From contig QHCE01000043.1 of the NCBI GenBank assembly GCA_003243955.1, positions 5,475 to 69,474 of the forward strand: DNA of 64,000 bases, in the 5' to 3' direction. This DNA comes from Acidimicrobiales bacterium. GTDB lineage: Bacteria; Actinomycetota; Actinomycetes; Mycobacteriales; QHCE01. A model generated the notes under the pieces. It did not search any database and was not told the DNA's origin. It was given only the letters and a program-made list of their open reading frames with translations. The translations under genes were made by a program, and so were the position numbers. Shown piece after piece: positions 28,873 to 63,520 of the stretch; position 1 is the stretch's first letter; each line of letters begins with the position of its first letter.

Positions 28873-31461
28873 TCATTCTCCAGCACGTTTACGGGGTTGT
28901 CCTCTAAGCAGCCGTGCAATACGACGCAGGCGGCCCTTAATTCCCCACAAAGTAACCAGCCACAGCGCCTCCAGCACGATCTTCGAGCTCATTTTGCTGT
29001 TGCCATGTTCCCGGTCAGTAAACGTTATCGGAGCTTCAGTAATAGTGAACCCGGCCTGGAAGGCGCGCCACGTGAGATCAACCTGGAAACAGTAACCTTG
29101 CGAAGCCACGGCTGAGAAGTCAATAGCATCTAGCACTGTTCGGCGATACGCTCTAAACCCACCCGTGGCATCCTTGACTTGGAACCCTAGGGCAAGCCGG
29201 ACATATACATTTGCTAACCGTGACAACAGCAACCGGTGTTTAGGCCAGTTCAAGACTTGGCCGCCAGGCATCCAACGTGAACCAATGACTAGATCTGCGT
29301 TCTCTAGTGCGCTCAACAGCCGAGGTAGCTCCTCAGGCGCGTGTGAGCCATCGGCATCCATCTCGACAACCACGTCGTAGTTGTTCTCGCGCGCCCAGGA
29401 AAATCCGGCAATATAGGCCGCACCCAGGCCTTTTTTGCCTTCGCGGTGCAGCACGTGGAGTGCCTTGTCCTCGTTGGCGAGCGCGTCAGCGATCTCGCCG
29501 GTGCCATCAGGACTATTGTCATCGACAATCAGTAGTGCCACATCGGGCGCAGCCACGCGCATCCGCTGCGTGATCTGCGTAAGGTTCTTAGCTTCGTTGA
29601 ACGTGGGCACCACAACGAGCACTCGCGCTGGTACTCGCTCTTGCGCGCTAGCAGCGGTTGCTGCCGAACCCGAGGCGGCCGCAGCTAGCGAGTGCAACGC
29701 TGGGCTCTCGTCTGTTGCTGGCTCAGCCTCGGAAACAGTAGTAGGTTGTTCCGCCAACACCATGGCATCTCCCTCTGAAGCTCGTAATTTCTCTCGGGCT
29801 GGTGTGGCATTGCTGGTCACTGAGGTTCGAGCCGCCACAAACGCCAAAACGATCGAGAAAGCAGCCAGCAACGACATGATCCAAGTTGGCCACGAGCCCA
29901 CTTTTGTGGCAAGAGTACGCGATGGGTCAAGTTCTATTTCACGCAGCAATGCTGCGGGAGTAAATAGCTGCGTGGCGGCCAACACCACTCCTTGCGGCGA
30001 GACGATCGCTGAAATTCCGGTCGTCGATGCCATGACGGCGTACCGATGATATTCCACGGCGCGCAGCCGCACCATGGCCAGCTGTTGAGCGCTTTGGGCG
30101 GAACGACCAAACGTTGCATTGTTGGTTTGCACGACGAACAGCTGAGCTCCAGGCCTTAGCACATCGGCCGATAGCTGATCGTAGGCAACTTCAAAACAAA
30201 TGACGTCCCCAATGCGGACGGGCCCCAGTTGGAGCAGACCGGGACGTTTCCCAGCTACGAAGTTCCGCCGCACGAGATCCACTTTGCCGCTGATCTGCCG
30301 GAAAAAGCTTCTGTAGGGCACATACTCGGCAAATGGCACCGGATGGCGCTTGACGTATTGCTCTCCTGGCCCGGTCGCTGGATCCCAAACGATGCCGGTG
30401 TTACGCAAAGTGCCCTGTGGACCGTCTAGCACCGCGCCGACCAAGATCGGCGCACCTATCTTGGCGGCCGCGCTACTGATCAGATCGGCGGCTGTCGGGT
30501 CTTGATACGGGTCAATGTCGGAGGAGTTCTCTGGCCAGATCACCAGATCGGGCTGCCGGACCTCACCACGCTGGATTCGCTCAGCCAGGCGTCGCGTTTG
30601 CGTTACATGGTTGTTCAGTACGGCGCGGCGCTGTGCGTTGAAAGCCAGACCCGCGCGCGGCACGTTGCCTTGTATCACCGCAACAGTTACCCGCTGGTTG
30701 GGTGATCTTGAATGAGTGGAGGGCAGGCTCAGCCGTGCACCCTCGAGGCCCCCGATGAGCACCCCAAAAATGACCGTTAAGACCAGTGCCCCACTAACGA
30801 ACCACTGGCGCAGGCCCAGCGCTGGAATACGCGCCCATAGGTAATAAGCCGCCACCGCAACACAGCCACCACATAGCGCTACCGTGAAGCTCACCGCGGG
30901 AGCACCGCCCAGCGCGGCCCACCACATCAGAGGACTATCCGCTTGACTAAAGGCTAATCGACCCCACGGAAAACCGCCCCACGGCAGTGCTGAACGCAGC
31001 GTCTCCTGGGCCACCCAGGCTGCCGCAATCAGCACCGGCAGCAACAGCCGAAGCTGTGGCCATCGGGCTGGTATCCGGGCAAGTGATGCCAGAACCACGC
31101 CGAGTAACGCCATGTACAACGCCTCGAAGGCTGCGAGGGTGAGCCATGGGAACCATCCGACATACAGCCCGGTCCAGTACAGCAACGGCACAAAGAAAGC
31201 CAGGCCGTGCACGCCTCCCAAGAGCAGCGCCCATCGCCACGACTGGCCCAACGATATTGCCGAGAGAAGCCCTACAGCTACGAGAGCGTTCCACCACCAG
31301 TCCAAGGGCGCAAATGCGGTCAGGGCGCACCCGCCAGACACCGCGGCCAGCAGGAGCGACCAGCCAGGAGCGCACAGCGTGCGATAGGAAGAGCTTGAGG
31401 GCACCCAGATCCTTGCCATTAACGTTGACGCTAGATATTGGCGAAGCGCTGGGGTGGACAT
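28873..31461 (-). CDS. ppm1: Bifunctional apolipoprotein N-acyltransferase / polyprenol-phosphate mannose synthase (Lnt-Ppm1 fusion)
   Basis: The N-terminal polytopic CN-hydrolase part (DLVIWPENSS, IGDVICFEVAY) is fused to a C-terminal GT2 domain (VVVPTFNEAKN, LIVDDNSPDGT), as in Rv2051c. Confidence 0.9.
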   Translation of the reverse strand: MSTPALRQYLASTLMARIWVPSSSSYRTLCAPGWSLLLAAVSGGCALTAFAPLDWWWNALVAVGLLSAISLGQSWRWALLLGGVHGLAFFVPLLYWTGLYVGWFPWLTLAAFEALYMALLGVVLASLARIPARWPQLRLLLPVLIAAAWVAQETLRSALPWGGFPWGRLAFSQADSPLMWWAALGGAPAVSFTVALCGGCVAVAAYYLWARIPALGLRQWFVSGALVLTVIFGVLIGGLEGARLSLPSTHSRSPNQRVTVAVIQGNVPRAGLAFNAQRRAVLNNHVTQTRRLAERIQRGEVRQPDLVIWPENSSDIDPYQDPTAADLISSAAAKIGAPILVGAVLDGPQGTLRNTGIVWDPATGPGEQYVKRHPVPFAEYVPYRSFFRQISGKVDLVRRNFVAGKRPGLLQLGPVRIGDVICFEVAYDQLSADVLRPGAQLFVVQTNNATFGRSAQSAQQLAMVRLRAVEYHRYAVMASTTGISAIVSPQGVVLAATQLFTPAALLREIELDPSRTLATKVGSWPTWIMSLLAAFSIVLAFVAARTSVTSNATPAREKLRASEGDAMVLAEQPTTVSEAEPATDESPALHSLAAAASGSAATAASAQERVPARVLVVVPTFNEAKNLTQITQRMRVAAPDVALLIVDDNSPDGTGEIADALANEDKALHVLHREGKKGLGAAYIAGFSWARENNYDVVVEMDADGSHAPEELPRLLSALENADLVIGSRWMPGGQVLNWPKHRLLLSRLANVYVRLALGFQVKDATGGFRAYRRTVLDAIDFSAVASQGYCFQVDLTWRAFQAGFTITEAPITFTDREHGNSKMSSKIVLEALWLVTLWGIKGRLRRIARLLRGQPRKRAGE

Positions 31462-48135: not shown

Positions 48136-48604
48136 TTACCGGGGCTTATCGAGGTGCACCAGGATCACGCCTGGTTTGAGTTCTCTCGCCGAACCTCGAC
48201 GTAGCCAAGCCGCTCGTAGAGACGGCGGTTACGAGGTGGTGCACGATAAAAATTTTTGCACAAGTTCTCTTAACTTGGCAAAAACACGTTGCCGCTGATC
48301 TGGTCGCTTCATCGACGATGATGGCAGGAACTTCCAATCGTGCACCATGTCATTAGCGATACTGAGGTGTCCGGTGAACAAGGTGAAGCGGCGCACCTCC
48401 GCCGGTGCTCGCTGTTCTAGTGCCGCGAGCAGCCGGGTTCCGATCCCGCGGCCCTGCAGATCGGGTGCGATGACTAGGCGACTTATGTAGAGGACGGAAC
48501 CCTCGCAGCGGGCGCCTCCAGCTCCCACCATGCGATGTCCCAGCGTCACCTTCAGCGCAAGACTTGACGACCGGCATGTCGATGATTTCCTGCTGCATCA
48601 GCAA
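48136..48604 (-). pseudogene. GNAT acetyltransferase remnant with several frameshifts
   Basis: RLVIAPDLQGRGIGTRLLAALE in one frame, NRRLYERLGYVEVRRE in a second, GVILVHLDKPR-stop in a third. Confidence 0.6.
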
Positions 48605-52170: not shown

Positions 52171-55041
52171 ATGCCACATCAGTTCTCACACAGCACCGCG
52201 AACAGCTCCCCGAGCGCCGCCCAGCTGCGGGTAGGTGATCAGGATTATCAGATTCATCGCATTACCGCCATACCCAGCCATGAACGGCTGCCTTACAGCC
52301 TAAAAATCCTGCTGGAGAATGTGCTTCGCACGCATGATGGTGTACACGTTACCGACGACCATGTCCAGGCACTTGCCCGCTGGCAGCCCACGGCGCCCCC
52401 GGATACCGAGATTGGGTTCACCCCGGCCAGGGTCATCCTGCAAGACTTCACCGGCGTCCCGTGTGTGGTGGATTTGGCCGCGATGCGCGAGGCGATGGTC
52501 GCACTTGGTGGGGACCCTGCCGCGATCAATCCACTAGCGCCAGCTGAGCTGGTGATCGATCACTCGGTGATCGCGGACGTGTTTGGTCGACCAGACGCCT
52601 TCGAACGCAACGTTGAGCTGGAGTATCAGCGCAATCGTGAGCGCTACCAATTCCTTCGCTGGGGTCAAACCGCGTTCAACCAGTTCACGGTCGTGCCTCC
52701 GGGCACTGGGATCGTGCATCAAGTCAACATTGAACACCTGGCCCGCGTAGTCATGACCCGTCAAACCGATACGGGCATGCTGGCCTATCCCGACACCGTC
52801 GTGGGTACCGATTCCCACACCACCATGGTGAATGGCTTGGGTGTGCTGGGCTGGGGGGTGGGCGGAATCGAAGCCGAGGCAGCAATGCTCGGTCAGCCAG
52901 TAAGCATGCTCATTCCACAGGTAGTGGGCGTTAAACTGCACGGGGAACTTGGTAGCGGAACGACCGCAACTGACCTGGTTCTCACCATCACGCAGCAGCT
53001 ACGGCAGCTTGGGGTGGTTGGTGAGTTCGTGGAGTTCTTTGGAGCTGGCGTAGCGGCGGTACCGCTGGCCAACCGAGCAACCATCGGCAACATGAGCCCA
53101 GAGTTCGGTTCCACGTGCGCTATCTTCCCGATCGATTCCGAGACGCTGCGCTATCTGCGCTTTACCGGACGCATGCCTGAGCAGGTAGCGCTGGTAGAGG
53201 CATACGCCAAGGAGCAAGGCCTGTGGCATGACCCAGCAACGCCTGCGCAGTATTCGCGTGTACTGGAGCTGGATCTAGCCGATGTGCAGCCCTCCATTGC
53301 TGGGCCCAAACGTCCGCAGGATCGGGTAGCGCTCGCAGATGCAAAGGCCGCGTTCCGTCGGAGTGTGCGCGGCTACGTGGTGTCGGCTAATACCTCTAGT
53401 CCTGTTGCAGCCTCCCCTATCCCGAGCGTTATCGATGAAGGTGTAGAAGAATCCTTTCCGGCCAGCGATCCGCTGTCGGTGATTAACGGTGGCGGAGAGC
53501 CGCCAGCAGCGCCGGTGCCTTCTGCCATGCCTGCCCCATCGAACGCGCCTGTTGGTGTCACGCTCGACACCGGTGAGCAGATCACGCTCGACCACGGCGC
53601 AGTGGTGATCGCCGCGATAACTTCCTGCACGAACACGTCCAACCCGCAGGTGATGATGGCCGCGGCGCTGCTGGCCAAGCATGCGGTGGAACGGGGGTTA
53701 CGTACCAAACCATGGGTGAAGACCACTCTGGCGCCGGGCTCACGAGTGGTCACCGATTACTTCGAGCGGGCCAGTCTGACGCCCTATCTGGAAAAGCTTG
53801 GCTTTCACCTGGTCGGTTACGGCTGCACCACGTGTATCGGAAACTCTGGACCACTGCCGGATGCGATCTCGAAGGCTGTCAACGATCGCGATCTCGCGGT
53901 GGTTTCTGTGCTGTCGGGCAATCGCAATTTCGAGGGTCGGATTAATCCAGACGTAACCATGAACTACCTGGCATCCCCACCGCTGGTAGTGGCATACGCA
54001 CTGGTGGGTAGCATGGACGTCGACCTACTCACCGAACCTCTAGGGTATGGGGCTGACGGCGAGCCGGTGTATTTGGCTGACATTTGGCCGACGCCGGAGC
54101 AGATCGCAACCGCGATTGCCGAATCGGTATCGCCACAGATGTACACCGACGGCTACGCCGACGTGTTCGCCGGTGATGATCGCTGGCGAGCGCTTGCCAC
54201 ACCTGAGGGCGACACATTCACCTGGGACGCGGAGTCCACGTATGTCCGCAAACCGCCGTACTTCGATGACATGCCCACTGAGCCGACCTCGGTCACCGAT
54301 ATTGCCGCCGCCCGAGTGCTGGCGCTGCTCGGCGATTCGGTGACCACCGACCATATCTCCCCCGCGGGTTCGATCAAAGCCGATTCCCCCGCCGGCCGAT
54401 ACCTGACCGAGCACGACGTGGAGCGCGGCGATTTCAACTCCTACGGCTCGCGGCGCGGAAACCACGAGGTGATGATCCGGGGCACGTTTGGCAATATCCG
54501 GCTACAAAACCAGCTGGGTGACTCCGCCGGGAAACCGCTGCCACGAGGTGGATTTACCCGCAACTTCCTCACCGGCAAGCAGAGCACCATCTATGCTGCC
54601 GCGCAGGCTTACCAGCGTGAAGGCATTCCGCTGGTGGTACTGGCGAGGAAAGAGTACGGCTCGGGGTCATCGCGAGACTGGGCAGCCAAAGGCACGGCGC
54701 TGCTGGGCGTCAAGGCCGTGATCGCGGAATCGTTCGAGCGGATTCACCGCTCGAACCTGATCGGCATGGGCGTGTTACCACTGCAGTTCCCAGCTGGAGA
54801 GAACGCCGAATCGCTGGGGATCACTGGCGAGGAAACGTTCGAGATCGCGGGCATTACGGTACTTAACGAGGGGCAGACGCCAAGGGCAGTGCACGTCACA
54901 GCAACGCGAGCAGGAAGCAATGTGGAAGGGCAACCAGTCGAATTTGACGCGATAGTCAGAATCGACACCCCCGGCGAGGCTGATTACTTCCGCCATGGCG
55001 GAATTCTGCCGTACGTGCTCCGCTCACTGCGGGGACAATAA
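52171..55041 (+). CDS. acnA: Aconitate hydratase A
   Basis: 956 aa. Fe-S ligand regions [11 protein letters not shown] and [10 protein letters not shown]. Confidence 0.97.
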
Positions 55042-55160
55042 TTCGCGTTTTCGCTGTACCGAAGCTGTTCCGTGCGTCACTATAAGAAGCAGACACCTAA
55101 CAGCTCGCTATTCTCCCCGCGGGGTTAGAACTAGTTGTGTAATGGCTATCGGAGCATGTC

Positions 55161-58100
55161 TTGTCAGATACCGGTGCATCGCAGTCCGATGCCGCCCCCC
55201 ATAGCCGAGAGCAACAGGCACTTGCTTCAGCTTTGGCTGAAACCCGTATAGCCCTCGGGCTATACCAGCACGATGTCGCGAATGGCCTAGGGCTGGGGAT
55301 CCATAGGATCAGAGAGGTTGAAGGCGACTGGACGAGTGCCCAACTTACAAGAATTGGATTTTCCTTTCGAATACTGAGCTATTTTGTTGAGCAGGCAGCT
55401 GACCCAAACCGCCTACTTGCCGATAAAAATCGTACTGCTGTTGATCAGGGCCTTGAGAGCATCCGCAGTCATGCAGAAATTGTGCGCAATCAGCTTCGCG
55501 AGGAGCGGCGGGACGAGCTAGGCGCCATTTTATCTGTGGACGAAGAACTCGCTGAGCATAAGTTGCGTTTAGCTTTCTCGCTACGAGAGCTGCGAGAAGT
55601 CAACCATGTAAGTAAAAAAAATATTGTGGAAAAAGTCTCAAAGCTCGAGCTAGTTTCTCTAAAAGAGTACGAGATGGGCATCGGTTACCAAATAGCGGAC
55701 CTTATCTTGATAAGAGAAATAATAGAAAAATTTCCTAGCCAGCATTCAAGCTACAGCTACATATATGAAGATTTAATAGCCAGTGTTGGTGCCCTCACTG
55801 GGAATAGGCGAAGAGCCACGCTCGCAGCAGAACAAAGACGCGCTAGAGCGGATCAGGTAGCTAGCCCGCAAGCTGCTAAAGAAAAGAGTAGCGGAGTATC
55901 GCAAAACCTGTTGGACACCGATCCGTCGTTAGCTGGTATTACTAACGCTTCATTGCTCGACGATTCACCGGACAATGAGACACAAGTCGTTAGTACGGCT
56001 ATCGTAGCTGGAAGAAAAGCTTGTAAAGAAACGCAAAGCGGCGCGGCGCGCTTTCTAGCTGATGAACTAAACCCTAGCGAATTTCGACATTTCATAACTT
56101 TCATTCAAGAGTTTGAGCGTCACGGAATAATTAAAAGTTTTTCTGGTGTGTTCTACACTAGATTTCTGCTTAATCGGTATATGCCTTATCTGGATGCCCC
56201 TAAAACCCAGCTGGATGATTTTAAGGAAATACTTGACAAACGAGCTAGTGAGATACGGCAAGAGCGCACTGTAAAGCTGCTGGCTCGCTTGGGTTATTCT
56301 GTAGAAGATGCAGTTCATCTAAATGATGAAACCATGCGAGCCGTAGAAATCGCCATTTCACTGCAGCACGTTCGGGAGATTCCTTTTCTTACACTTTCCA
56401 CAGTGGCTAAAAAAATAAATACACTAGCTGGCAATAAACCCCTTGCCAACGTTGGTAAGCTCTCCTACCTCGAAAACACAGCTCGATACAATCTTCGCCA
56501 GATTAAACTGGCTCAACTATTTTTAGAGGCGTGTCAAGTTTCTGAAGATATCAGTGCTGACCCAACTCTTATCCATGAAGCGGTCATTGCTCTGCTAACA
56601 GCACAGAGTCGTCGGCCTCCACGGCGAATACGCCATCGGATAGGTGATCCGTCCACTGAAGACAAGCGTCGAGGCGCTGTTGATACTCGGTATGCTTCTT
56701 TAACTGCCGTGCAGGCTCAAATACTCGGTGATCTAACGAGCGCTGGATTCACGGTAGAAGAATTTTTCCCTCATGTGAAAAACCTGATATCCGACCAAGA
56801 GAAGAAAATAGATAGCGACCGAAGGACTGCACTACGAAGAAAACTTAGAAAGTTTACCGAGCTTTTTCCGGAAGTTCCTCACACTTCTTGGGAAGATATC
56901 TACGGCGAGGAAGTGGATCATCGACTCTACATTGCGCTCGCTCTCAACAAGCTGCGAATAACTTCTGACCCAGTGCTTACAAAGGATCAACTTACCCGCG
57001 CCTGTGCTATCAAAGGTGAAGATATAGCCTATTTTTATCAGTACATAAAGTCCATAGAGGAGGCAACATGGCCGGATCTTCCCCCACAACACGCGGTCAA
57101 CCGTGTTTTGGAGATCCTCGTCGCCGACGAAGATACTATTGAAGAAGTCAATAAAAGAATTGTTGCTCTACATACAAGAAAGCGACGAGGGATAGAAACC
57201 ATCCCTGTGCCAAGCGAGAGCTCTGTTTCAGTAGACCCACAGGAAAATCTACACTATAGTTTAGAAATTTTTAGCTGGCTTGCCGCAATGCATCTCGAGC
57301 ACAGACATCTGCAAAGCGGCCGCCAGGGTGACTACATCGCCGCATTTGCGGCAGAGATTGAACTTAATGAGGCTCAACTCAGGCATCTTTTAGACCCGTA
57401 CAGCCGTGAAGAGCATACTGTAGATAACAAAATTTCCGAGCCTAACGCAACTATGGCAGAGCGATGGTACGCAACCAACGCGACTATTGAACAAATTACT
57501 TCTTACGTAGCGCCGGATTTAGCGGAACATCTTCCAGAGGCCCGCGAAGAGCATACAGTAAATCAGGGTTCTGATGAGTCCGATGAAGAATACCGCGCAA
57601 TATGGCGAAATATCGGCAGACTGGTGAATGCTCATTCAAACTATCTCGGGGATATGATTCCAGAGGGTGCATCCCGTAGAGAAGATCAGATACGCGGATT
57701 CCTTAAGCGTGAGCCCTTCCAAAATATCGTTAGCGGAAATGGTGCGGGTGATCGAGAATCGTTACTAGTCCTTTTAAACAGCTGGCGCGAAATCTTGGAC
57801 GCAACCCGCTTTACTCGTGGGCACGGTTCTTCCGGAGTGACCGATCCCGCCCCTGCTCGCCAGACCTCTTCTGATTCCGACCCATCTGCACCAAGCCCTC
57901 TCCAACCAGCAGCGGAAGGATCACCAGCTCTAGGCCCAGCTCCCGCTGGCCCGGTAGCAACATCACCGGTGCTTCCGGTGGCCGATGCTTCGGGCTGGAA
58001 GGCATATGGACGAGTCTTTGCCGAGTATCAGCGAGTTATGCGTATAAGAAATATCAGTCTGGCCCACTATCTAGGCTGCTCGTCGCGCGAGATTATCGAT

Positions 58101-59579
58101 ATCCACAACGGTCACGGTTATCAACGTCCTGAGCTTATCGCCGGCGCTACCTCATTTTGGTTAGATCCTGACGCGACGTATCAACGCCGGGCCACGGCGG
58201 TATCAGATTCCGGCTGGGACGAGTTCGGGCAGCTGGTGCGGACACTCCGCGAGGTAAACGGACACTCAAGAGGTGCGTTCGCCGAGATTATCAACAGCTT
58301 CGATGTGGCCGTGGCGGAGATCGAGAGCGGCGCCGGCGCCCAATACCCCTCCGAGGTTTCCGCCATTACTGCGAGCGTTTCTCAGTTTGTGGCTGTTCAT
58401 GAAAGACCTCGAGGACAAGCCGCTGCCGCACCCGCCCCGCCAGACGTGAGTGCCCCGGTCGTTGCTCCCGTCGCGCGGCAGCCTGCCAGCGAGCGCGACG
58501 ATGAGGCTTATCAGCGGTCTCTTGAAGGCCGCATAGGTGATCGAACAATAGTCGACGCCGGATGGCCTAACCTCATAGTGCTGCTCCGCCGACAGCGGCT
58601 AAACACCAAGCTAACTGTCGAAGGCTGGGCAACCAGTACGGGCACCTCGGCGGAACTTGTGCGGCGGATGGAAGAATCGGGAGGGGGTCATGAGAACAAG
58701 AACCTGCGCGCCGTACTACAACTCGCACAGGAATTAGGCGAGGAAGATCGCGCTCGGGCGATGTTGATCGTAGGCGAGGTGAAACGATTAAAAAGGGCCA
58801 ACATTGAGCGGCAGCTACGCCGCACACAGATTGTGCTCCATTTCCCCGGGTGGGATCGAACCGCGTGGCCCGGATGTGGTGCGTTCCTCCAGCAGCAACG
58901 CGAGCTCGCCGAGCTAACCGTCGAAGAGCTGGCAAACCTCTGTGGGGTGCCAGTAGCCGCATTTCAAGAGATATGGTGCGGCGGGGGCTACGAGCCATCC
59001 TTCCGAGACGCAATCGATCCGGGCCGGATAGCCTTTCGTGATCTTCGGAACGACAGCGCTACGGTTTTAGACAAACTCCGTGAGCTCAATAACAGCACGG
59101 GCAACGATCCCGACCCGCTATGGGAGGAACTACATACTCTTCTACATAACGAGCAGACCCGCGATTACCACAGCTATCGACAGATACTCGAAAGCCGGAA
59201 GCAGTCTCCGGTGAGAGCAGGAGACTGGCAAGACCTGATCGTGCTTGCCTACCAAGCTCGCCGGCGTAGCGGCCCACGACGAGAGCCTGTAGCGACAACC
59301 GCTGGACTACCAGTGGCCACACTGAAAGACATCGAGAGCGGCGTAGCCCCACTTGACCACGTTAGCTACCAGGCCATTGTAGCGCTGTTTTGGGCTACTA
59401 AGTCTGGCGACGATATACCGACAGACATCAAAGAGAAACTTCAGCGGCTCAAAACGGCCCTCGCCAACCAAGCCGGCGGTGAGCTACCCCCTTCGGCTCC
59501 ACCGAGCTTCCGCCCCAGAGCTCTTCCCGATTTCCCATCTTCTAAGCATTGCCTTAGCGGGCACTCGCATCGCAGATAA
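55161..59579 (+). CDS. Giant (1472 aa) protein of tandem degenerate XRE-type helix-turn-helix-like units; function unknown
   Basis: An uninterrupted 4419-nt ORF running through a ~39% GC core. Five clear W-prefixed HTH units at residues 946-1415, at least five weaker units in the N-terminal 640 residues and two P/A/S-rich linkers. TTG start follows CGGAG; the start is uncertain. Confidence 0.75.
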   Translation: MSDTGASQSDAAPHSREQQALASALAETRIALGLYQHDVANGLGLGIHRIREVEGDWTSAQLTRIGFSFRILSYFVEQAADPNRLLADKNRTAVDQGLESIRSHAEIVRNQLREERRDELGAILSVDEELAEHKLRLAFSLRELREVNHVSKKNIVEKVSKLELVSLKEYEMGIGYQIADLILIREIIEKFPSQHSSYSYIYEDLIASVGALTGNRRRATLAAEQRRARADQVASPQAAKEKSSGVSQNLLDTDPSLAGITNASLLDDSPDNETQVVSTAIVAGRKACKETQSGAARFLADELNPSEFRHFITFIQEFERHGIIKSFSGVFYTRFLLNRYMPYLDAPKTQLDDFKEILDKRASEIRQERTVKLLARLGYSVEDAVHLNDETMRAVEIAISLQHVREIPFLTLSTVAKKINTLAGNKPLANVGKLSYLENTARYNLRQIKLAQLFLEACQVSEDISADPTLIHEAVIALLTAQSRRPPRRIRHRIGDPSTEDKRRGAVDTRYASLTAVQAQILGDLTSAGFTVEEFFPHVKNLISDQEKKIDSDRRTALRRKLRKFTELFPEVPHTSWEDIYGEEVDHRLYIALALNKLRITSDPVLTKDQLTRACAIKGEDIAYFYQYIKSIEEATWPDLPPQHAVNRVLEILVADEDTIEEVNKRIVALHTRKRRGIETIPVPSESSVSVDPQENLHYSLEIFSWLAAMHLEHRHLQSGRQGDYIAAFAAEIELNEAQLRHLLDPYSREEHTVDNKISEPNATMAERWYATNATIEQITSYVAPDLAEHLPEAREEHTVNQGSDESDEEYRAIWRNIGRLVNAHSNYLGDMIPEGASRREDQIRGFLKREPFQNIVSGNGAGDRESLLVLLNSWREILDATRFTRGHGSSGVTDPAPARQTSSDSDPSAPSPLQPAAEGSPALGPAPAGPVATSPVLPVADASGWKAYGRVFAEYQRVMRIRNISLAHYLGCSSREIIDIHNGHGYQRPELIAGATSFWLDPDATYQRRATAVSDSGWDEFGQLVRTLREVNGHSRGAFAEIINSFDVAVAEIESGAGAQYPSEVSAITASVSQFVAVHERPRGQAAAAPAPPDVSAPVVAPVARQPASERDDEAYQRSLEGRIGDRTIVDAGWPNLIVLLRRQRLNTKLTVEGWATSTGTSAELVRRMEESGGGHENKNLRAVLQLAQELGEEDRARAMLIVGEVKRLKRANIERQLRRTQIVLHFPGWDRTAWPGCGAFLQQQRELAELTVEELANLCGVPVAAFQEIWCGGGYEPSFRDAIDPGRIAFRDLRNDSATVLDKLRELNNSTGNDPDPLWEELHTLLHNEQTRDYHSYRQILESRKQSPVRAGDWQDLIVLAYQARRRSGPRREPVATTAGLPVATLKDIESGVAPLDHVSYQAIVALFWATKSGDDIPTDIKEKLQRLKTALANQAGGELPPSAPPSFRPRALPDFPSSKHCLSGHSHRR

Positions 59580-59606
59580 ACCGCGTCGACGGCTGGGCCC
59601 TCAGTG

Positions 59607-60770
59607 CTACTTTCGGCGGGATTTTCTCTTTCCCGTTCCGCTGGGTGCATTGGAACTCCGCGGAGCGGCGTAACCTTCTGAGTACTGGGTCGTGACTTTT
59701 TCCGGGTCATCCGGTAGGCCAAGGGCTTCGATCAAATTTGGCACAATCTTGGTTGGTGGCGCTATTTCCCCCGATTGATACCGTGAGAAAGTCGATGGAG
59801 CGATTCCCAGTTTTCCAGCCACTGAGGTAGCGGTCCTGCCACCACGTTTCAGAGCTGCCTTGATCCAATTCCCCATGTGCCCAGCGGGAAGAACCCTCGA
59901 CTGGCTCGGGGTTAACTGTCTCACTGGCGGAACAACAGCGAGCTGAGCATCGAACTCATCCTGCCCGAGACGCCGAATCGCTTCGGGCGCCAGCGTCTCT
60001 ATCAGAGCGCTCACTTCTGGCGGAGGTCCAACACGCCCTAATTCATAGCCAGAAAGCATTGCGGCGCCGCATCCGAGCAGCTCCGCGCATTCCTTTTGAC
60101 TCAAACCCAAAGCCCGTCGGATCACCCCAATACGATGCCCTTGTGTCCGGTACGCCAGCGATTGCGACAAGCGCTTACCTCGAGGAACCGATCTTCTATT
60201 CAAGTTCGCGATATGCCCTGGTCTACCGTGACCGTGGGGATATCGCTCCTTAACTTGCTCCACAGCTTCCATGACCTGTTTCGCCGTAAGCGACGGTTTC
60301 GTGGCTTTGACAATTCGGCGTATGACTTCCTCTGGTACGTCCGACTTTCTGCTCCGATATCGGGATAGCTGCGAAGCGGAGATTTTGATGATTCCCGCCA
60401 GCTCTTCCGCGGTCATCCCGCTATCGCCTAAGGTTTCATGGATCCAACGGGCCGCATATCCTGCCGACGGGGTCCTCGTCCGTGAATAACCTCGCCGCGG
60501 TTGCGGAGCCGGGACATCGGCTAACCTAACAGCGAATTCCTCTTGGCCGATTCTGGCTATCACAAGCCCGGCAAGGTAATTGATTGTGGCTACCGTCTCG
60601 GGATGTAGGGGTATTTTGCCGGATTCATATCGCGACACAGTTGCGGCATCGCGACCAAAGAACGCACCGAAAGGGCCTTGCTTTAGGTCCATAGCTTGAC
60701 GGATGACTCGGACGCGATGACCCAGGCGGCTATCCCCCCTGTTAGCCATCGGCGTAGAGGGCTGCGTCAC
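59607..60770 (-). CDS. Four-HTH (XRE-type) protein built from an internally duplicated two-HTH module
   Basis: Residues 17-160 and 210-352 align unit for unit (GHRVRVIRQA../GHRIGVIRRA.., ..GQEEFAVRLADVP/..GQDEFDAQLAVVP, AGYAARWIHE../AGHMGNWIKA..). The GTG start overlaps the ABC gene stop (GTGA). Confidence 0.8.
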   Translation of the reverse strand: MTQPSTPMANRGDSRLGHRVRVIRQAMDLKQGPFGAFFGRDAATVSRYESGKIPLHPETVATINYLAGLVIARIGQEEFAVRLADVPAPQPRRGYSRTRTPSAGYAARWIHETLGDSGMTAEELAGIIKISASQLSRYRSRKSDVPEEVIRRIVKATKPSLTAKQVMEAVEQVKERYPHGHGRPGHIANLNRRSVPRGKRLSQSLAYRTQGHRIGVIRRALGLSQKECAELLGCGAAMLSGYELGRVGPPPEVSALIETLAPEAIRRLGQDEFDAQLAVVPPVRQLTPSQSRVLPAGHMGNWIKAALKRGGRTATSVAGKLGIAPSTFSRYQSGEIAPPTKIVPNLIEALGLPDDPEKVTTQYSEGYAAPRSSNAPSGTGKRKSRRK

Positions 60771-62635
60771 GGCACGCTAACCACTGCGAATTGGGCCGCG
60801 TACAGCTCGTTGTACAACCCACCTTCGGCTAGAAGCTGCTCGTGGGTGCCCCGCTGCGCGATCCGCCCATCGTCGACCACCAGAATCTGGTCAGCACCCC
60901 GAATAGTGGAGAGCCGGTGGGCGATCACTAGCGCGGTACGGTCGGCCAACGCCTCCTCCAGCGCCCGCTGCACCGCTAGCTCGGATTCTGAATCCAGATG
61001 TGAGGTAGCTTCGTCGAGAATCACAATGGACGGCGACTTGAGCAGCAGCCTCGCGATGGCCAGGCGCTGCTTCTCCCCACCGGAGAGCCGATAGCCGCGC
61101 TCCCCCACTACCGTGTTGAGTTTGTCGGGAAGAACACGCACCATATCAGCAATCTGAGCACGGCCAAGCGCTTCCCATATCTGCTCGGCGCTGGCGTGCG
61201 GCGCCGCATATCGCAGGTTTGCCTCAATCGTGTCGTGGAACATGTGGGGGTCTTGCGAAACCACGCCGATGCTGCCTCGCAGTGATTCTTGAGTTACATC
61301 TCGCACATCCAGGCCATCGAGGAGTATCGCGCCGCCGGTGACGTCGTACAGCCGAGGTACCAGCTGCGCGATGGTGGTCTTTCCCGCGCCCGAGGGGCCT
61401 ACTAGCGCGATGATTTGGCCCGGTTCGGCCAGGAAACTCACCCCGCGCAGCACCGGCCGGTTCGAGGTACGGTCAAGAATCGCGACGTCCTCCAGCGAAG
61501 CCAGCGATACCTCTTTTGCTGTGGGGTAGGTGAATTGCACGTCGTTAAATTCGATCCGTCTGGCGCCCAAAGGTAGCTTTTTTGCGCCAGGCTTATCCGT
61601 CACCATCGGTGGCAGATCCAGTACTTCGAATACGCGCTCGAATGACACCAGCGCACTCATCACGTCCACCCGCACGTTCGACAGCGCAGTAAGCGGCCCA
61701 TACAACTGGGCCAGCAGCAACGCCAGCGCGACCACCGTGCCGGCATTGAGCTGGCCGTCAAACGCTAGCCACCCACCCAGGCCGTACACCAGTGCCTGTG
61801 CCAGGGCGGCCACCAGCGTCAACGCAATGAAGAACATTCTGCTGTACAGCGCAGACTGCACACCGATATCGCGCACTCGAGTGGCGCGTTTACCAAATGA
61901 TTGATTCTCCTCATCCGCGCGCCCGAACAACTTCACCAACATGGCACCGGAAACGTTGAACCGCTCGGTCATGGTGGTGTTCATCGACGCGTTGAGTTGC
62001 AGCTGTTCCCGGGTAATAGCTTGTAGCTTGCGCCCAAACCAGCGAGCTGGCAGCACGAAAACCGGTACTAGTATCAACGACAGCAGCGTGATCTGCCAGC
62101 TCAGCGTGGCCATCACGCCCACGGTCACGATCAGTGCGATGAAGTTAGAGCCGACACCCGATAATGTGCCGGTAAACGCCCGCTGCGCTCCGATCACGTC
62201 GTTGTTCAGACGAGAGATCAACGCGCCGGTCTGCGTCCGGGTGGAAAACGCTATCGGCATACCGAGCACATGATCGAAAACTTTGCGGCGCAGATCCAGA
62301 ATCAAGCTCTCCCCAATGCGGGAGCTGTACCAACGCTCAGCCATGGATAGCACGGCAGCCAGTAGCGCCAAGCCCGCAATGACGGCGGCAATGGTCACCA
62401 CCAGACCGCGGTCGCGGTGTTGCACGATGGCGTTGACCACCCGGCCAGCTAGCACTGGAGTTGCCACCGAGGCTAGCGCGGCGGCGGCCAAAATTACGAA
62501 CATCACGATCAGTTGCCGGCGGTATGGCTTCGCATACTCTAAAACCCGGCGCACGGTGACCTTGGATACCGCTTGATTGGCCACCACTGAATCGTCGCGG
62601 TACGCCATGCGCCGAAGCGATGAATGACCCATCAT
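60767..62635 (-). CDS. ABC exporter, fused permease/ATPase (MsbA-like half transporter)
   Basis: 622 aa with six N-terminal TM segments. Walker A GPSGAGKTT, signature LSGGEKQRLAIARLL, Walker B IVILDEATSHLD. Confidence 0.9.
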   Translation of the reverse strand: MMGHSSLRRMAYRDDSVVANQAVSKVTVRRVLEYAKPYRRQLIVMFVILAAAALASVATPVLAGRVVNAIVQHRDRGLVVTIAAVIAGLALLAAVLSMAERWYSSRIGESLILDLRRKVFDHVLGMPIAFSTRTQTGALISRLNNDVIGAQRAFTGTLSGVGSNFIALIVTVGVMATLSWQITLLSLILVPVFVLPARWFGRKLQAITREQLQLNASMNTTMTERFNVSGAMLVKLFGRADEENQSFGKRATRVRDIGVQSALYSRMFFIALTLVAALAQALVYGLGGWLAFDGQLNAGTVVALALLLAQLYGPLTALSNVRVDVMSALVSFERVFEVLDLPPMVTDKPGAKKLPLGARRIEFNDVQFTYPTAKEVSLASLEDVAILDRTSNRPVLRGVSFLAEPGQIIALVGPSGAGKTTIAQLVPRLYDVTGGAILLDGLDVRDVTQESLRGSIGVVSQDPHMFHDTIEANLRYAAPHASAEQIWEALGRAQIADMVRVLPDKLNTVVGERGYRLSGGEKQRLAIARLLLKSPSIVILDEATSHLDSESELAVQRALEEALADRTALVIAHRLSTIRGADQILVVDDGRIAQRGTHEQLLAEGGLYNELYAAQFAVVSVP

Positions 62636-62972: not shown

Positions 62973-63248
62973 ATGCGAACCTTTCCGTTATCTGAAGCTA
63001 AAACTCACCTTTCCGAGATCGTCGAGGAGGCCGAAAATACCCATGAGCGGGTCACTATCACCAAACATGGCCATCCCGCGGTGGTACTGGTCTCCGCCGA
63101 TGATCTAGACGCGCTAGAGGAAACCCTGCATTGGCAATCCGTCCCGAATATTCGCAAGCGGATATCTGAAGCCGAGGTCGCGATTGAGGACGGCGAGGTG
63201 TACTCCACCAACCAGGTGCGCAACGAACTTGGGTTCCCACTGCGGTGA
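62973..63248 (+). CDS. Phd/YefM-family antitoxin
   Basis: MRTFPLSEAKTHLSEIVEEAENTHERVTITKHGHPAVVLVSADDLDALEETLHW. Confidence 0.85.
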   Translation: MRTFPLSEAKTHLSEIVEEAENTHERVTITKHGHPAVVLVSADDLDALEETLHWQSVPNIRKRISEAEVAIEDGEVYSTNQVRNELGFPLR

Positions 63249-63520
63249 GTAACCGCTATACCGTCGAAATAAGCGCCCCGGCCTTTCGTGACCTGCAACG
63301 CATTCCACGAAAGGTTGCTGAGGCCATTCTAGCTTTCTGCGATAGTCTGCTGACGGAAAATCCTCGACGAGTCGGAAAGCCACTTCGTGGTGAGTACGCT
63401 GGGCGTTTCAGCGCTCGCCGTGGCGACTATCGCGTGATGTATTCCATCACAGAAGAACTTAAGAAAGTGCGGGTGCTCGTCATCGATCACCGCTCTCAGG
63501 TGTACCGCTCTGGTCGATGA
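63245..63520 (+). CDS. RelE/ParE-family toxin
   Basis: 91 aa. ..NPRRVGKPLRGEYAGRFSARRGDYRVMYSI..VRVLVIDHRSQVY. 4-nt overlap with the antitoxin gene. Confidence 0.85.
   Translation: MSNRYTVEISAPAFRDLQRIPRKVAEAILAFCDSLLTENPRRVGKPLRGEYAGRFSARRGDYRVMYSITEELKKVRVLVIDHRSQVYRSGR

Follow-up and report, generated by a model that had tools for sequence, protein, structure and literature searches.

A G+C drop inside a giant multi-HTH gene of an actinobacterium that may reflect AT enrichment in place rather than domain acquisition

The 5' 2.9 kb of ORF 55161-59579 form the strongest compositional outlier within the 64-kb window, i.e. the whole stretch of DNA that was analysed, and this drop in G+C is genuine and lies inside one gene. 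Our leading explanation, put forward tentatively and with its cause unproven, is that a hypervariable and weakly constrained native gene became richer in AT in place. The product of the ORF is identical to NCBI DLM55_06185 from an actinobacterial MAG, annotated as 'hypothetical protein'. The ORF and its immediate surroundings are as follows:

55042..55160, + strand: intergenic region between acnA and the ORF, compared by pairwise DNA alignment
55161..59579, + strand: giant multi-HTH (XRE-type) ORF, 4419 nt, 1472 aa, TTG start
55161..58058, + strand: low-G+C / low-GC3 segment (GC3 0.416) with A/T-ending codons throughout, enriched in AGA and ATA
59607..60770, - strand: convergent neighbour, 387 aa, four XRE HTH domains, GC3 0.55 and thus likewise under host level

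The ORF is a real coding gene, since it forms a single open frame and is conserved at the protein level among its homologues, and the original prediction was therefore right in taking the low-GC stretch for coding. A Shine-Dalgarno sequence (GGAG) located 7 nt upstream of the TTG start is conserved, and the neighbour gene at 59607..60770 shares a 4-nt overlap with the upstream ABC-exporter gene. No overlapping antisense ORF of more than 90 aa was found in the low-GC part, and no RNA family (Rfam) matched within 54800-61000. An overlapping gene and an RNA element were both rejected.

The sole run of 600-nt windows below 50% G+C is this stretch, compared to a mean of 58.6% (sd 4.0%) for the 64-kb window. 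GC3 amounts to 0.416 in codons 1-940 versus 0.594 in codons 946-1472, and the mean GC3 of the other ORFs in the window, 32 in number, is 0.648 (sd 0.065, minimum 0.52). The sliding-window and codon-usage check proposed beforehand thus revealed a significant shift outside the range of these ORFs. The hand counts behind the prediction were exact (70 of 180 G+C in 55621-55800, 38 of 60 in 58381-58440 and 37 of 60 in 54001-54060), and the drop that they indicated is real, but the ~39% ascribed to the whole of 55400-57780 is just a local minimum of a stretch with an overall G+C of 46.5%. The switch that had been placed near 57780 agrees with a change-point at codon positions 1+2 after codon 880 (~57801), just upstream of the P/A/S-rich linker, which reflects the amino-acid composition of that linker. 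The maximum-likelihood change-point of GC3, in contrast, lies after codon 966 (~58059), within the first W-prefixed HTH unit; its likelihood-ratio statistic is 46.5, compared to a 95th percentile of 9.0 and a maximum of 17.1 in codon shuffles. Similarly, the first ~200 nt of the ORF are GC-richer at codon positions 1 and 2, as had been noticed, but not at position 3, where GC3 is already 0.46-0.47 from codon 1. All of GC1, GC2 and GC3 are lowered in the low-GC part, A/T-ending codons are favoured for nearly every amino acid, and the amino-acid composition is shifted as well (FYMINK from 16% to 20%, GARP from 34% to 28%). Host-rare codons occur at 32 per 1000 in the N-terminal part versus 11 per 1000 in host genes, roughly a 3-fold excess, and AGA accounts for 15 of 939 codons versus 30 of 12218 in the host set (~6-fold). 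Slower translation of the N-terminal (N) module would follow from this excess. Some of the codon signature, an excess of ATA, AGA and CTA, is kept in the C-terminal part.

The protein has an unusual architecture with at least five clear and several degenerate XRE-type HTH units, roughly 10 in all. The following segments were distinguished:

55215..55340, + strand: N-terminal XRE-like HTH unit, residues ~19-60 (best HTH_25 stretch 25-59; hhalign P = 8e-4)
55563..55730, + strand: second, degenerate HTH-like unit, residues ~135-190 (hhalign P = 1.4e-4)
55950..57260, + strand: core, residues 264-700, all-alpha in the AF2 model, with XRE-like helical bundles linked by long helices
56607..56633, + strand: basic loop SRRPPRRIR, residues 483-491, the same in the query (P0001) and in P0002
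57816..57992, + strand: P/A/S-rich low-complexity linker, residues ~886-944
57996..58160, + strand: W-prefixed HTH unit 1, residues 946-1000, containing the GC3 change-point at ~58059
58215..58382, + strand: W-prefixed HTH unit 2, residues 1019-1074 (Pfam HTH_31 E = 0.0032 as isolated segment)
58440..58505, + strand: junction where the homologues P0002, P0003 and P0006 end
58563..59393, + strand: three further W-prefixed HTH units, residues 1135-1191, 1236-1284 and 1356-1411
59478..59576, + strand: C-terminal tail 'LPPSAPPSFRP...', a motif read by eye

The predicted C-terminal array of W-prefixed HTH units appears to be of XRE type, and its five units could be aligned to the four bona fide XRE domains of the neighbour 59607-60770; BLAST of the ORF against this neighbour gave only one short single-unit match (E = 9e-4). 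The first unit differs strongly from its counterpart in the relatives, the GWRTYGWLH unit. The three units in 58563..59393 together make up a ~350-aa super-repeat, which is also present in the homologue P0007 and in a 1809-aa paralogous ORF (at least two copies). The tail aligns with the FPGW start of another repeat unit, and similar tails close P0002, P0003, P0004 and P0006; it may thus be read as a truncated repeat unit.

Upstream of the linker, the units are more degenerate. Residues ~135-190 are the best-conserved block among the orthologues (67% identity). The AF2 model of the core, based on a five-sequence alignment, reached a pLDDT of 76.6 and a pTM of 0.65, and a model of residues 1-900 from a two-sequence alignment had a pLDDT of 35. 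The SRRPPRRIR loop opens the stretch of lowest confidence (model residues 220-244, with pLDDT below 50 at 227-244). A Foldseek search with the core model yielded local matches only, to C.AhdI, C.Esp1396I, ClgR and POU, at probabilities of at most 0.97 and E > 0.3; the target-normalised TM-scores were 0.65-0.70 for the first three structures. The best Pfam HTH_3 stretch was residues 469-510 of P0007, which align to ~607-650 of the query. What points to an HTH identity of the core units are thus local structural matches with non-significant E-values and sub-threshold Pfam matches. Two core blocks used as profiles matched nothing among PDB sequences other than designed proteins, and a Pfam scan of isolated N-module segments gave no HTH match.

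At the level of the whole protein, the Pfam gathering cut-offs were exceeded for HTH_31 (45.6 bits versus 27) and HTH_25 (29.0 versus 24.6), both scores being the sum of several weak stretches. Isolated segments gave three HTH_31 matches short of the cut-off, two with an E-value of 0.003 and one with 0.06, and P0007 has three HTH_31 stretches at E <= 0.1. Two known families were rejected: RodZ, since NF008109 scored 15.8 bits versus a cut-off of 208 with the match confined to residues 15-63, and HipB / Y4mF-type type II antitoxins, since the NCBIfam match of the N-terminal unit (TIGR03070) was limited to residues 20-64 and below cut-off (49.8 versus 71.65 bits) and no HipA-like gene is adjacent. 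PADLOC reported only HTH_VI (E = 4e-4 over 37 residues) and no defence family beyond this generic HTH, PHROGs gave no phage-family match, and a literature search found no paper on multi-HTH XRE proteins or on Lsr2 in Acidimicrobiia.

Shared Pfam scores, the alignment of the units and the local Foldseek matches relate the protein to XRE / Cro-C1 (lambda-repressor-like) regulators (HTH_31, HTH_3, HTH_25; C.AhdI, C.Esp1396I, ClgR). These regulators typically have 70-300 aa and one HTH, whereas the 1472 aa of the present protein comprise roughly 10 units, none of which passes the Pfam domain threshold on its own, its N-terminal units are too degenerate for profile searches of PDB sequences, and no typical sensor or oligomerisation domain was detected. 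Tandem HTH in one polypeptide are likewise found in multi-HTH XRE proteins such as the neighbour 59607-60770, the two-HTH Wmk and the POU domain, but here they are part of proteins of 1472-1809 aa with a ~350-aa super-repeat in a family of seven members. The protein is probably a multivalent DNA-binding regulator or an architectural protein, and some of its HTH units may bind proteins instead of DNA.

When 1.84 billion representative proteins were searched exhaustively with phmmer, only these seven family members were retrieved, the named ones of which come from actinobacterial MAGs; none of the seven could be traced to a phage, a plasmid or a host of demonstrably low GC. Among the matches listed by a word-indexed protein search, the full-length query retrieved itself and P0002, a seven-sequence profile again retrieved two proteins, and the C-terminal half retrieved none, itself included. 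Scans for related loci in GTDB genomes, JGI metagenomes and viral contigs found no relative, and BLAST against phage and plasmid collections gave no match to the N module. The contigs of the family have 52-64% G+C overall; the three contigs with low-GC orthologues consist mostly of the gene itself, and the flanking genes of each member are high-GC.

P0007 is a positional orthologue (acnA-X-ABC) in which a single protein unites both modules, arranged as in the query, with 26% identity in the core and 31% in the C-terminal array. Its composition is uniform, with a GC3 of 0.69 and no significant change-point; this is still below the 0.74-0.85 of its neighbours. A homologue with uniform composition and the same architecture had been named beforehand as evidence against a fusion, and P0007 is such a homologue. 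Three further members are high-GC: P0004, a paralogue in the same genome that carries the N module without the array at host-like composition (65% G+C, GC3 0.72), and the fragments P0005 and P0006 (GC3 0.70-0.77; 43-49% identity to the query). The 1809-aa multi-HTH ORF adjacent to P0004 is host-like as well (GC3 0.72). The low-GC orthologue P0003, at 39-47% identity, is no closer to the query than the high-GC P0005 and P0006. The GC3 change-points of the low-GC orthologues are located at codon 966 in P0001, 608 in P0002 and 677 in P0003, corresponding to query residues ~966, 439 and 636. Thus the shift affects all three codon positions, is specific to a clade, and has a 3' boundary that varies among orthologues.

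The gene also differs from its flank in the rate or depth of divergence. In an alignment with the related contig L001, no aligned base differs over the first ~45 nt past the acnA stop, and similarity collapses from ~55085. Compared to this single relative over 96 acnA codons, the acnA tail has 89% protein identity and 75% identity at 4-fold sites, versus 47-52% and 45-48%, respectively, for the ORF. Since similarity to a close relative collapses so soon beyond the acnA stop, the slot between acnA and the ABC exporter appears to behave as a hypervariable locus that is fixed in position. A mobile element or island was rejected: no integrase or tRNA gene was found in the gene neighbourhood, no meaningful DNA repeats were found at the locus, and the slot downstream of acnA is occupied both in L001 and in the distant L006. 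Divergence is also uneven within the gene. The post-linker units of P0001 share 21-25% identity with those of P0002, P0003 and P0006, which are 38-56% identical among themselves, and the N module is less diverged.

The locus resembles AT-rich, fast-evolving lineage-specific ('ORFan') genes and low-GC hypervariable loci, for which a study by Daubin and Ochman in 2004 is said to be an example. The features in common are a G+C below the genome average, a very narrow taxonomic range and a divergence far above that of the flanking housekeeping gene. In contrast to such genes and loci, the anomaly concerns only part of a very long gene that has deeply diverged positional orthologues, and mobility genes, tRNA genes and flanking repeats are absent. 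Atypical base composition and codon usage are shared with horizontally acquired genomic islands, but the slot is filled in distant relatives and all known homologues come from related actinobacterial MAGs of high GC.

We consider AT enrichment in place the best of the available explanations, though we hold it with less than firm confidence. According to it, the whole 4.4-kb ORF would be one native, lineage-restricted gene for an all-helical giant of XRE/Cro-type units, with clear units in the C-terminal part, degenerate ones over the N-terminal two-thirds, and long helices and the P/A/S-rich linker between them. Within the family, one sub-clade would most likely have lost G+C in place over the first ~2.9 kb of the gene. 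The proposed cause is AT-biased mutation under weak codon selection, possibly together with scant GC-biased repair or recombination, as diverged alleles recombine poorly. Such AT pressure would have moved synonymous sites first and then the amino-acid composition. Genome-wide mutational bias alone is insufficient, since P0004 in the same genome has not drifted. An equation of fast evolution with AT-richness fails within the gene, since the C-terminal units diverge faster at near-host GC3. The confinement to the 5' part, for which nothing in the analysis accounts, counts against this explanation.

The strongest alternative, unlikely in our view, is that an orthologous allele of lower G+C was imported from a related lineage by homologous recombination, with breakpoints at ~55085 and ~58059; this would be allelic replacement and not domain fusion. 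It would account for the abrupt drop in DNA identity to L001 past acnA, and the excess of synonymous divergence over acnA, which suggests a coalescence deeper than that of the flank, could equally come from a different history of the cassette such as this one. The parts of P0001 may also differ in history, as its post-linker units are aberrant and its N module is not, but these units resemble an accelerated decay of the GWRTYGWLH unit and not its replacement. Moreover, no low-GC donor was found among the seven members, and the three low-GC orthologues have ~45% mutual identity and differing change-points. The import would therefore have to be repeated several times from an unseen pool, or be a single old event that never drifted back to host composition.

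Somewhat less likely again is that AT-richness was selected, at the level of DNA or RNA, as a tract for a nucleoid-associated, Lsr2-like silencer, as the binding tract of the protein itself or as a rare-codon throttle that limits or paces translation of the N module. The maintenance of low GC3 in three lineages at ~45% protein identity and the excess of host-rare codons including AGA are consistent with this idea. The trait is missing, however, from P0004, P0005, P0006 and P0007, its boundaries are not conserved among orthologues, and the region has neither conserved DNA repeats nor an RNA family, nor is it enriched in promoter- or terminator-like sites (one promoter-like site found, 3.9 expected). 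A bolder version, to which we give a still smaller chance, is that the acnA-linked slot is a cassette under diversifying selection, in which the giant poly-HTH array would act as multivalent sensor, decoy or architectural DNA binder, e.g. in anti-phage defence or self/non-self recognition, and the AT-rich, rare-codon 5' body would be kept actively by nucleoid-protein silencing or translational throttling, so that the protein stays under tight control.

The original prediction itself, a foreign low-GC N-terminal module joined to a resident HTH array by fusion at the P/A/S linker, has become very improbable. It has in its favour a sharp and significant change in composition close to the linker and the separate occurrence of the halves, the N module without the array in P0004 and part of the array at the P0003 locus (L012), where a separate ORF in another frame lies downstream of the equivalent of junction 58440..58505. 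However, the stand-alone N module is high-GC and resides in the same genome, P0007 unites both modules at uniform GC, the N module lacks homologues in phages and plasmids and contains XRE-like units itself, and no low-GC donor was found. Nor is the linker the joint: the synonymous switch lies away from it, inside the first HTH unit, and P0002, P0003 and P0006, too, have units 946-1090 attached to their N module. A fusion or fission did occur, but its actual point is near residue 1100, inside the GC-normal part. The prediction had also allowed for 'very different constraints' on the N-terminal module, and this fallback remains by elimination. A mis-assembly that joined the DNA of two organisms, conceivable because the source is a MAG, has a negligible chance of being correct, since the 4419-nt ORF and its flanks occur as identical DNA in four further independent assemblies (two from NCBI and two from Logan, from different sequencing runs), which excludes an assembly chimera, the frame is open through the switch, and the same arrangement is found in orthologues from other samples.

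Intragenic breaks in composition are often taken for scars of domain acquisition. The break described here is sharp and strong and yet no such scar, since the homologues reveal an old and native architecture and a break whose position moves among orthologues. This calls for caution in composition-based calls of horizontal transfer, and provides a small natural case of regional AT drift or maintenance within a GC-rich genome. At the same time, the gene represents a family of giant XRE-type proteins of about ten units that has hardly been sampled so far. This family occupies a conserved but hypervariable site, and its modules fuse and split between adjoining ORFs. If the slot were indeed a diversifying cassette, the ~10 or more XRE units, the 350-aa super-repeat, the fusing and splitting modules and the part-gene composition would be functional traits of an undescribed system. 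If it is true that these proteins bind many DNA sites simultaneously, they would form a class that is unusual among the regulators or nucleoid proteins of actinobacteria.

The gene under study, annotated by NCBI as the 'hypothetical protein' DLM55_06185 of a MAG labelled Acidimicrobiales, and its neighbours are arranged as follows.

52171-55041: acnA, upstream of the large ORF
55161-59579, + strand: large ORF with a TTG start, encoding the 1472-aa query P0001
59607-60770, - strand: gene of a 387-aa protein, convergent with the large ORF

The original prediction that the AT-rich stretch is coding was borne out, both by the conservation of the protein in homologues and by an arithmetic estimate of about 1e-19 for the chance that a frame of ~790 codons is free of stops at the observed composition. 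The three hand counts of G+C were exact on recount and the shift is real, but its size was overstated, as the 39% is a local minimum at 55621-55800 and the mean over the 2.4 kb of 55400-57780 is 46.5%. This stretch is the sole run of 600-nt windows below 50% G+C in the 64-kb window, which has an overall G+C of 58.6% (sd 4.0% across 600-nt windows). Synonymous sites are also affected: G+C at third codon positions (GC3), calculated per 100-codon window, was 0.34-0.48 as far as about codon 940 and 0.57-0.64 beyond it. For codons 1-940 together it was 0.416, compared to 0.648 ± 0.065 (minimum 0.52) for the remaining ORFs of 250 aa or more in the window (n = 32), a range that includes the C-terminal part of the ORF (0.594).

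Change-points were located by likelihood analysis, separately for GC3 and for codon positions 1+2, with codon shuffling as the null. GC3 switched after codon 966 (~58059) with a likelihood-ratio test statistic of 46.5 (codon-shuffle 95th percentile 9.0, maximum 17.1), and positions 1+2 switched after codon 880 (~57801), where the P/A/S-rich linker begins. A switch near 57780, as first proposed, is thus correct for positions 1+2 but not for GC3; similarly, the 'GC-richer first 200 nt' of the ORF are richer at positions 1 and 2 but not at position 3. A/T-ending codons were favoured for almost every amino acid in the N-terminal module (fractions of 0.40 vs 0.12 for ATA, 0.19 vs 0.03 for AGA and 0.70 vs 0.34 for TTT in the comparison), and the residues shifted in the same direction (FYMINK 20% vs 16%, GARP 28% vs 34%). 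A weaker form of this signature persists in the C-terminal part.

An exhaustive phmmer search with residues 1-900 against 1.84 billion representative proteins retrieved a family of only seven members. GTDB species genomes, JGI metagenome contigs, viral contigs, phages and plasmids yielded no relatives.

Relatives of the query P0001 and the ORF preceding its paralogue.
P0002: 1301 aa, contig L001; directly downstream of an acnA with 89% identity to the window acnA at its C-terminus; 49% (residues 1-235) and 38% (residues 264-1109) identity to the query; low-GC 5' part
P0003: 1194 aa, contig L012; orthologue; low-GC 5' part
P0004: 1108 aa, L007:6918-10244, + strand; paralogue from the same genome assemblies as the window, a stand-alone N-terminal module lacking the C-terminal array; follows the 1809-aa ORF with a 4-nt overlap; host-like (65% G+C, GC3 0.72)
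P0005: 262-aa fragment, N-terminus; GC3 0.70-0.72
P0006: 459-aa fragment, residues 695 onwards; GC3 0.76-0.77
P0007: 1380 aa, contig L006 of a distant relative, between acnA and the orthologous ABC exporter gene; core 274-670 with 26% and C-terminal array 1074-1420 with 31% identity to the query, order unchanged; uniform composition (61.6% G+C, GC3 0.69), yet below its neighbours (0.74-0.85)
Multi-HTH ORF: 1809 aa, L007:1492-6921, + strand; host-like (64.5% G+C, GC3 0.72)

These relatives do not support the interpretation that a foreign low-GC N-terminal module was fused at the linker to a resident array of W-prefixed helix-turn-helix (HTH) units. P0007 carries the modules in the same order at uniform composition, the outcome named beforehand as refuting this interpretation, and in P0004 the window's own genome has an N-terminal module of host-like composition. 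Low G+C is limited to the sub-clade of P0001, P0002 and P0003; P0005 and P0006 resemble P0001 and P0002 (43-49%) as closely as the low-GC P0003 does (39-47%). Since a single seam would sit at one place, the GC3 change-points, at codon 966 in P0001, 608 in P0002 (~query residue 439) and 677 in P0003 (~query residue 636), argue against a shared fusion seam. P0002, P0003 and P0006 have two W-units and then stop, near query residue 1100, and on L012 a separate ORF in another frame, 34% identical to query residues 1213-1403, starts beside the P0003 stop. This arrangement marks a genuine fusion or fission at about residue 1100, away from the composition break, with the junction (~58440-58505) in the GC-normal part. 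The two-module idea therefore survives insofar as both modules occur independently, but both are native and their seam is not the composition break.

The five W-prefixed units of the query (residues 946-1000, 1019-1074, 1135-1191, 1236-1284 and 1356-1411) align with the XRE domains of the adjoining 387-aa protein, all four of which are bona fide. Whole-protein Pfam scores for HTH_31 and HTH_25 exceeded the cut-off as sums of several weak stretches, and isolated segments of the N-terminal two-thirds gave no Pfam match. Profile-profile comparison placed HTH-like units at residues 19-54 and 141-177 (P 1e-4 to 1e-3), and the best Pfam HTH_3 stretch of P0007 (residues 469-510) aligned to ~607-650 of the query. 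AF2 reached a pLDDT of only 35 for residues 1-900 with a two-sequence alignment; residues 264-700 with five family sequences gave an all-helical model (pLDDT 76.6, pTM 0.65). Its structural neighbours were only local matches to XRE-type HTH proteins (C.AhdI, C.Esp1396I, C.BclI, ClgR, POU and phage XRE proteins), with target-normalised TM-scores of 0.65-0.70 and non-significant E-values. With moderate confidence, sequence and model together suggest that the N-terminal module is built of units like those in the C-terminal array but degenerate, with long helices between them, and is not a categorically different domain.

A ~150-aa segment (YSGxISSVxHYLVA...LAWLVNQA) that P0002, P0003 and P0004 have in conserved form is missing from the query at residues 252-262 (55914-55946), a lineage-specific deletion. 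P0001 is further derived by this loss and by its first two W-units, which are unusually diverged. A ~350-aa super-repeat occurs at least twice in the 1809-aa ORF, in copies that are homologous to query residues 1115-1472 (31% and 25% identity). The same ORF has a GWRTYGWLH unit resembling the one that comes first after the linker in P0002, P0003 and P0006. In the other assembly, L008, this ORF is called as two genes (1331 and 495 aa), reflecting a frameshift or an assembly difference. The C-terminal tails of the query (59478-59576), P0002, P0003, P0004 and P0006 share a proline-rich 'LPxPSPxxF(R/K)PG' followed by basic residues; they look like truncated repeat units because the motif opens the next unit in the 1809-aa paralogue (PFPGW). 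P0007 has an extra C-terminal ~230 aa (residues ~1150-1380, L006:13450-14143) that is absent from the window protein and has no Pfam, PADLOC or PHROG match.

DNA alignment with L001 showed high conservation of the last part of acnA and identity at every base of the first ~45 nt past its stop, followed by a collapse from ~55085, beyond which similarity is left only in short stretches, the GGAG ribosome-binding site among them. The acnA tail has 89% protein identity and 75% identity at 4-fold degenerate sites, compared to 47-52% and, in conserved codons, 45-48% for the large ORF. By this single comparison with a short flank, either the cassette is evolving much more rapidly than the flanking DNA or its history goes back further, and the locus appears hypervariable.

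We inferred a ranking of four causes of the low G+C. The first, the most probable of the four though slightly less likely than not, is that a gene under weak constraint and in fast evolution became enriched in A+T where it stands. All three codon positions shift together, the signature of directional mutation pressure; the low-GC state is clade-specific with boundaries that drift among orthologues, GC3 is depressed in the positional orthologue P0007 too, and the searches gave no donor. It sits less well with the paralogue P0004, which shows no such drift, and with the C-terminal part, which evolves faster yet is not AT-rich. Import by homologous recombination, with a relative of lower G+C supplying an orthologous allele, would also fit the abrupt loss of identity at the 5' side and the surplus of synonymous divergence; we consider it unlikely given that no donor was found and that the three low-GC alleles are diverged and differ in their boundaries. 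Somewhat less probable again is that selection favours a gene body that is AT-rich or full of rare codons, via silencing or translational throttling: the trait persists in three lineages with a 3-fold excess of rare codons, but other family members lack it and no DNA-level signals were found. Fusion of a foreign domain is very improbable, and an assembly artefact has a negligible chance, a chimera being excluded by DNA that is base-for-base identical in four assemblies, two of them NCBI MAGs and the other two independent Logan assemblies.

The gene of the 387-aa protein, with four XRE HTH domains and a GC3 of 0.55, also below host level, overlaps the last 4 nt of an MsbA-like ABC exporter gene (60767-62635, - strand), which suggests translational coupling of the two; at the distant locus L006 the ABC gene is present and the four-HTH gene absent. 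Just past the exporter lies a PhdYeFM antitoxin/ParE toxin pair (62973-63520, + strand; coordinates carried over from genes called on L002, an identical contig). Sequences from four different samples or assemblies (L002-L005) are identical to the window across 7-19 kb except for one mismatch at 48299, and the organism appears clonal across samples. In an 862-aa ORF (28873-31461, - strand), apolipoprotein N-acyltransferase (Lnt) domains are fused to a family-2 glycosyltransferase, an arrangement known from Actinomycetes. This fusion and the Mycobacteriales labels of MAGs with family members, namely the sources of P0005 and P0006, raise doubt about the 'Acidimicrobiales' label.

The building block of the query is an ordinary XRE/Cro-C1 HTH, and the protein differs in having about ten units per chain; it presumably works like a DNA-binding regulator. 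Assignment to RodZ or to HipB-type antitoxins was rejected, the HipB/Y4mF-like and RodZ-like NCBIfam matches being sub-threshold and confined to residues 15-64, and PADLOC and PHROG families gave no match past generic HTH. A horizontally acquired island was likewise rejected, atypical composition being the only one of its features found. The part of the literature covered by our search holds no description of giant poly-HTH proteins. The compositional regime inside this rare, fast-evolving giant HTH-repeat gene is unusual but explicable; it is a useful negative result for attempts to infer horizontal transfer from composition, and the family flags a poorly sampled protein architecture.
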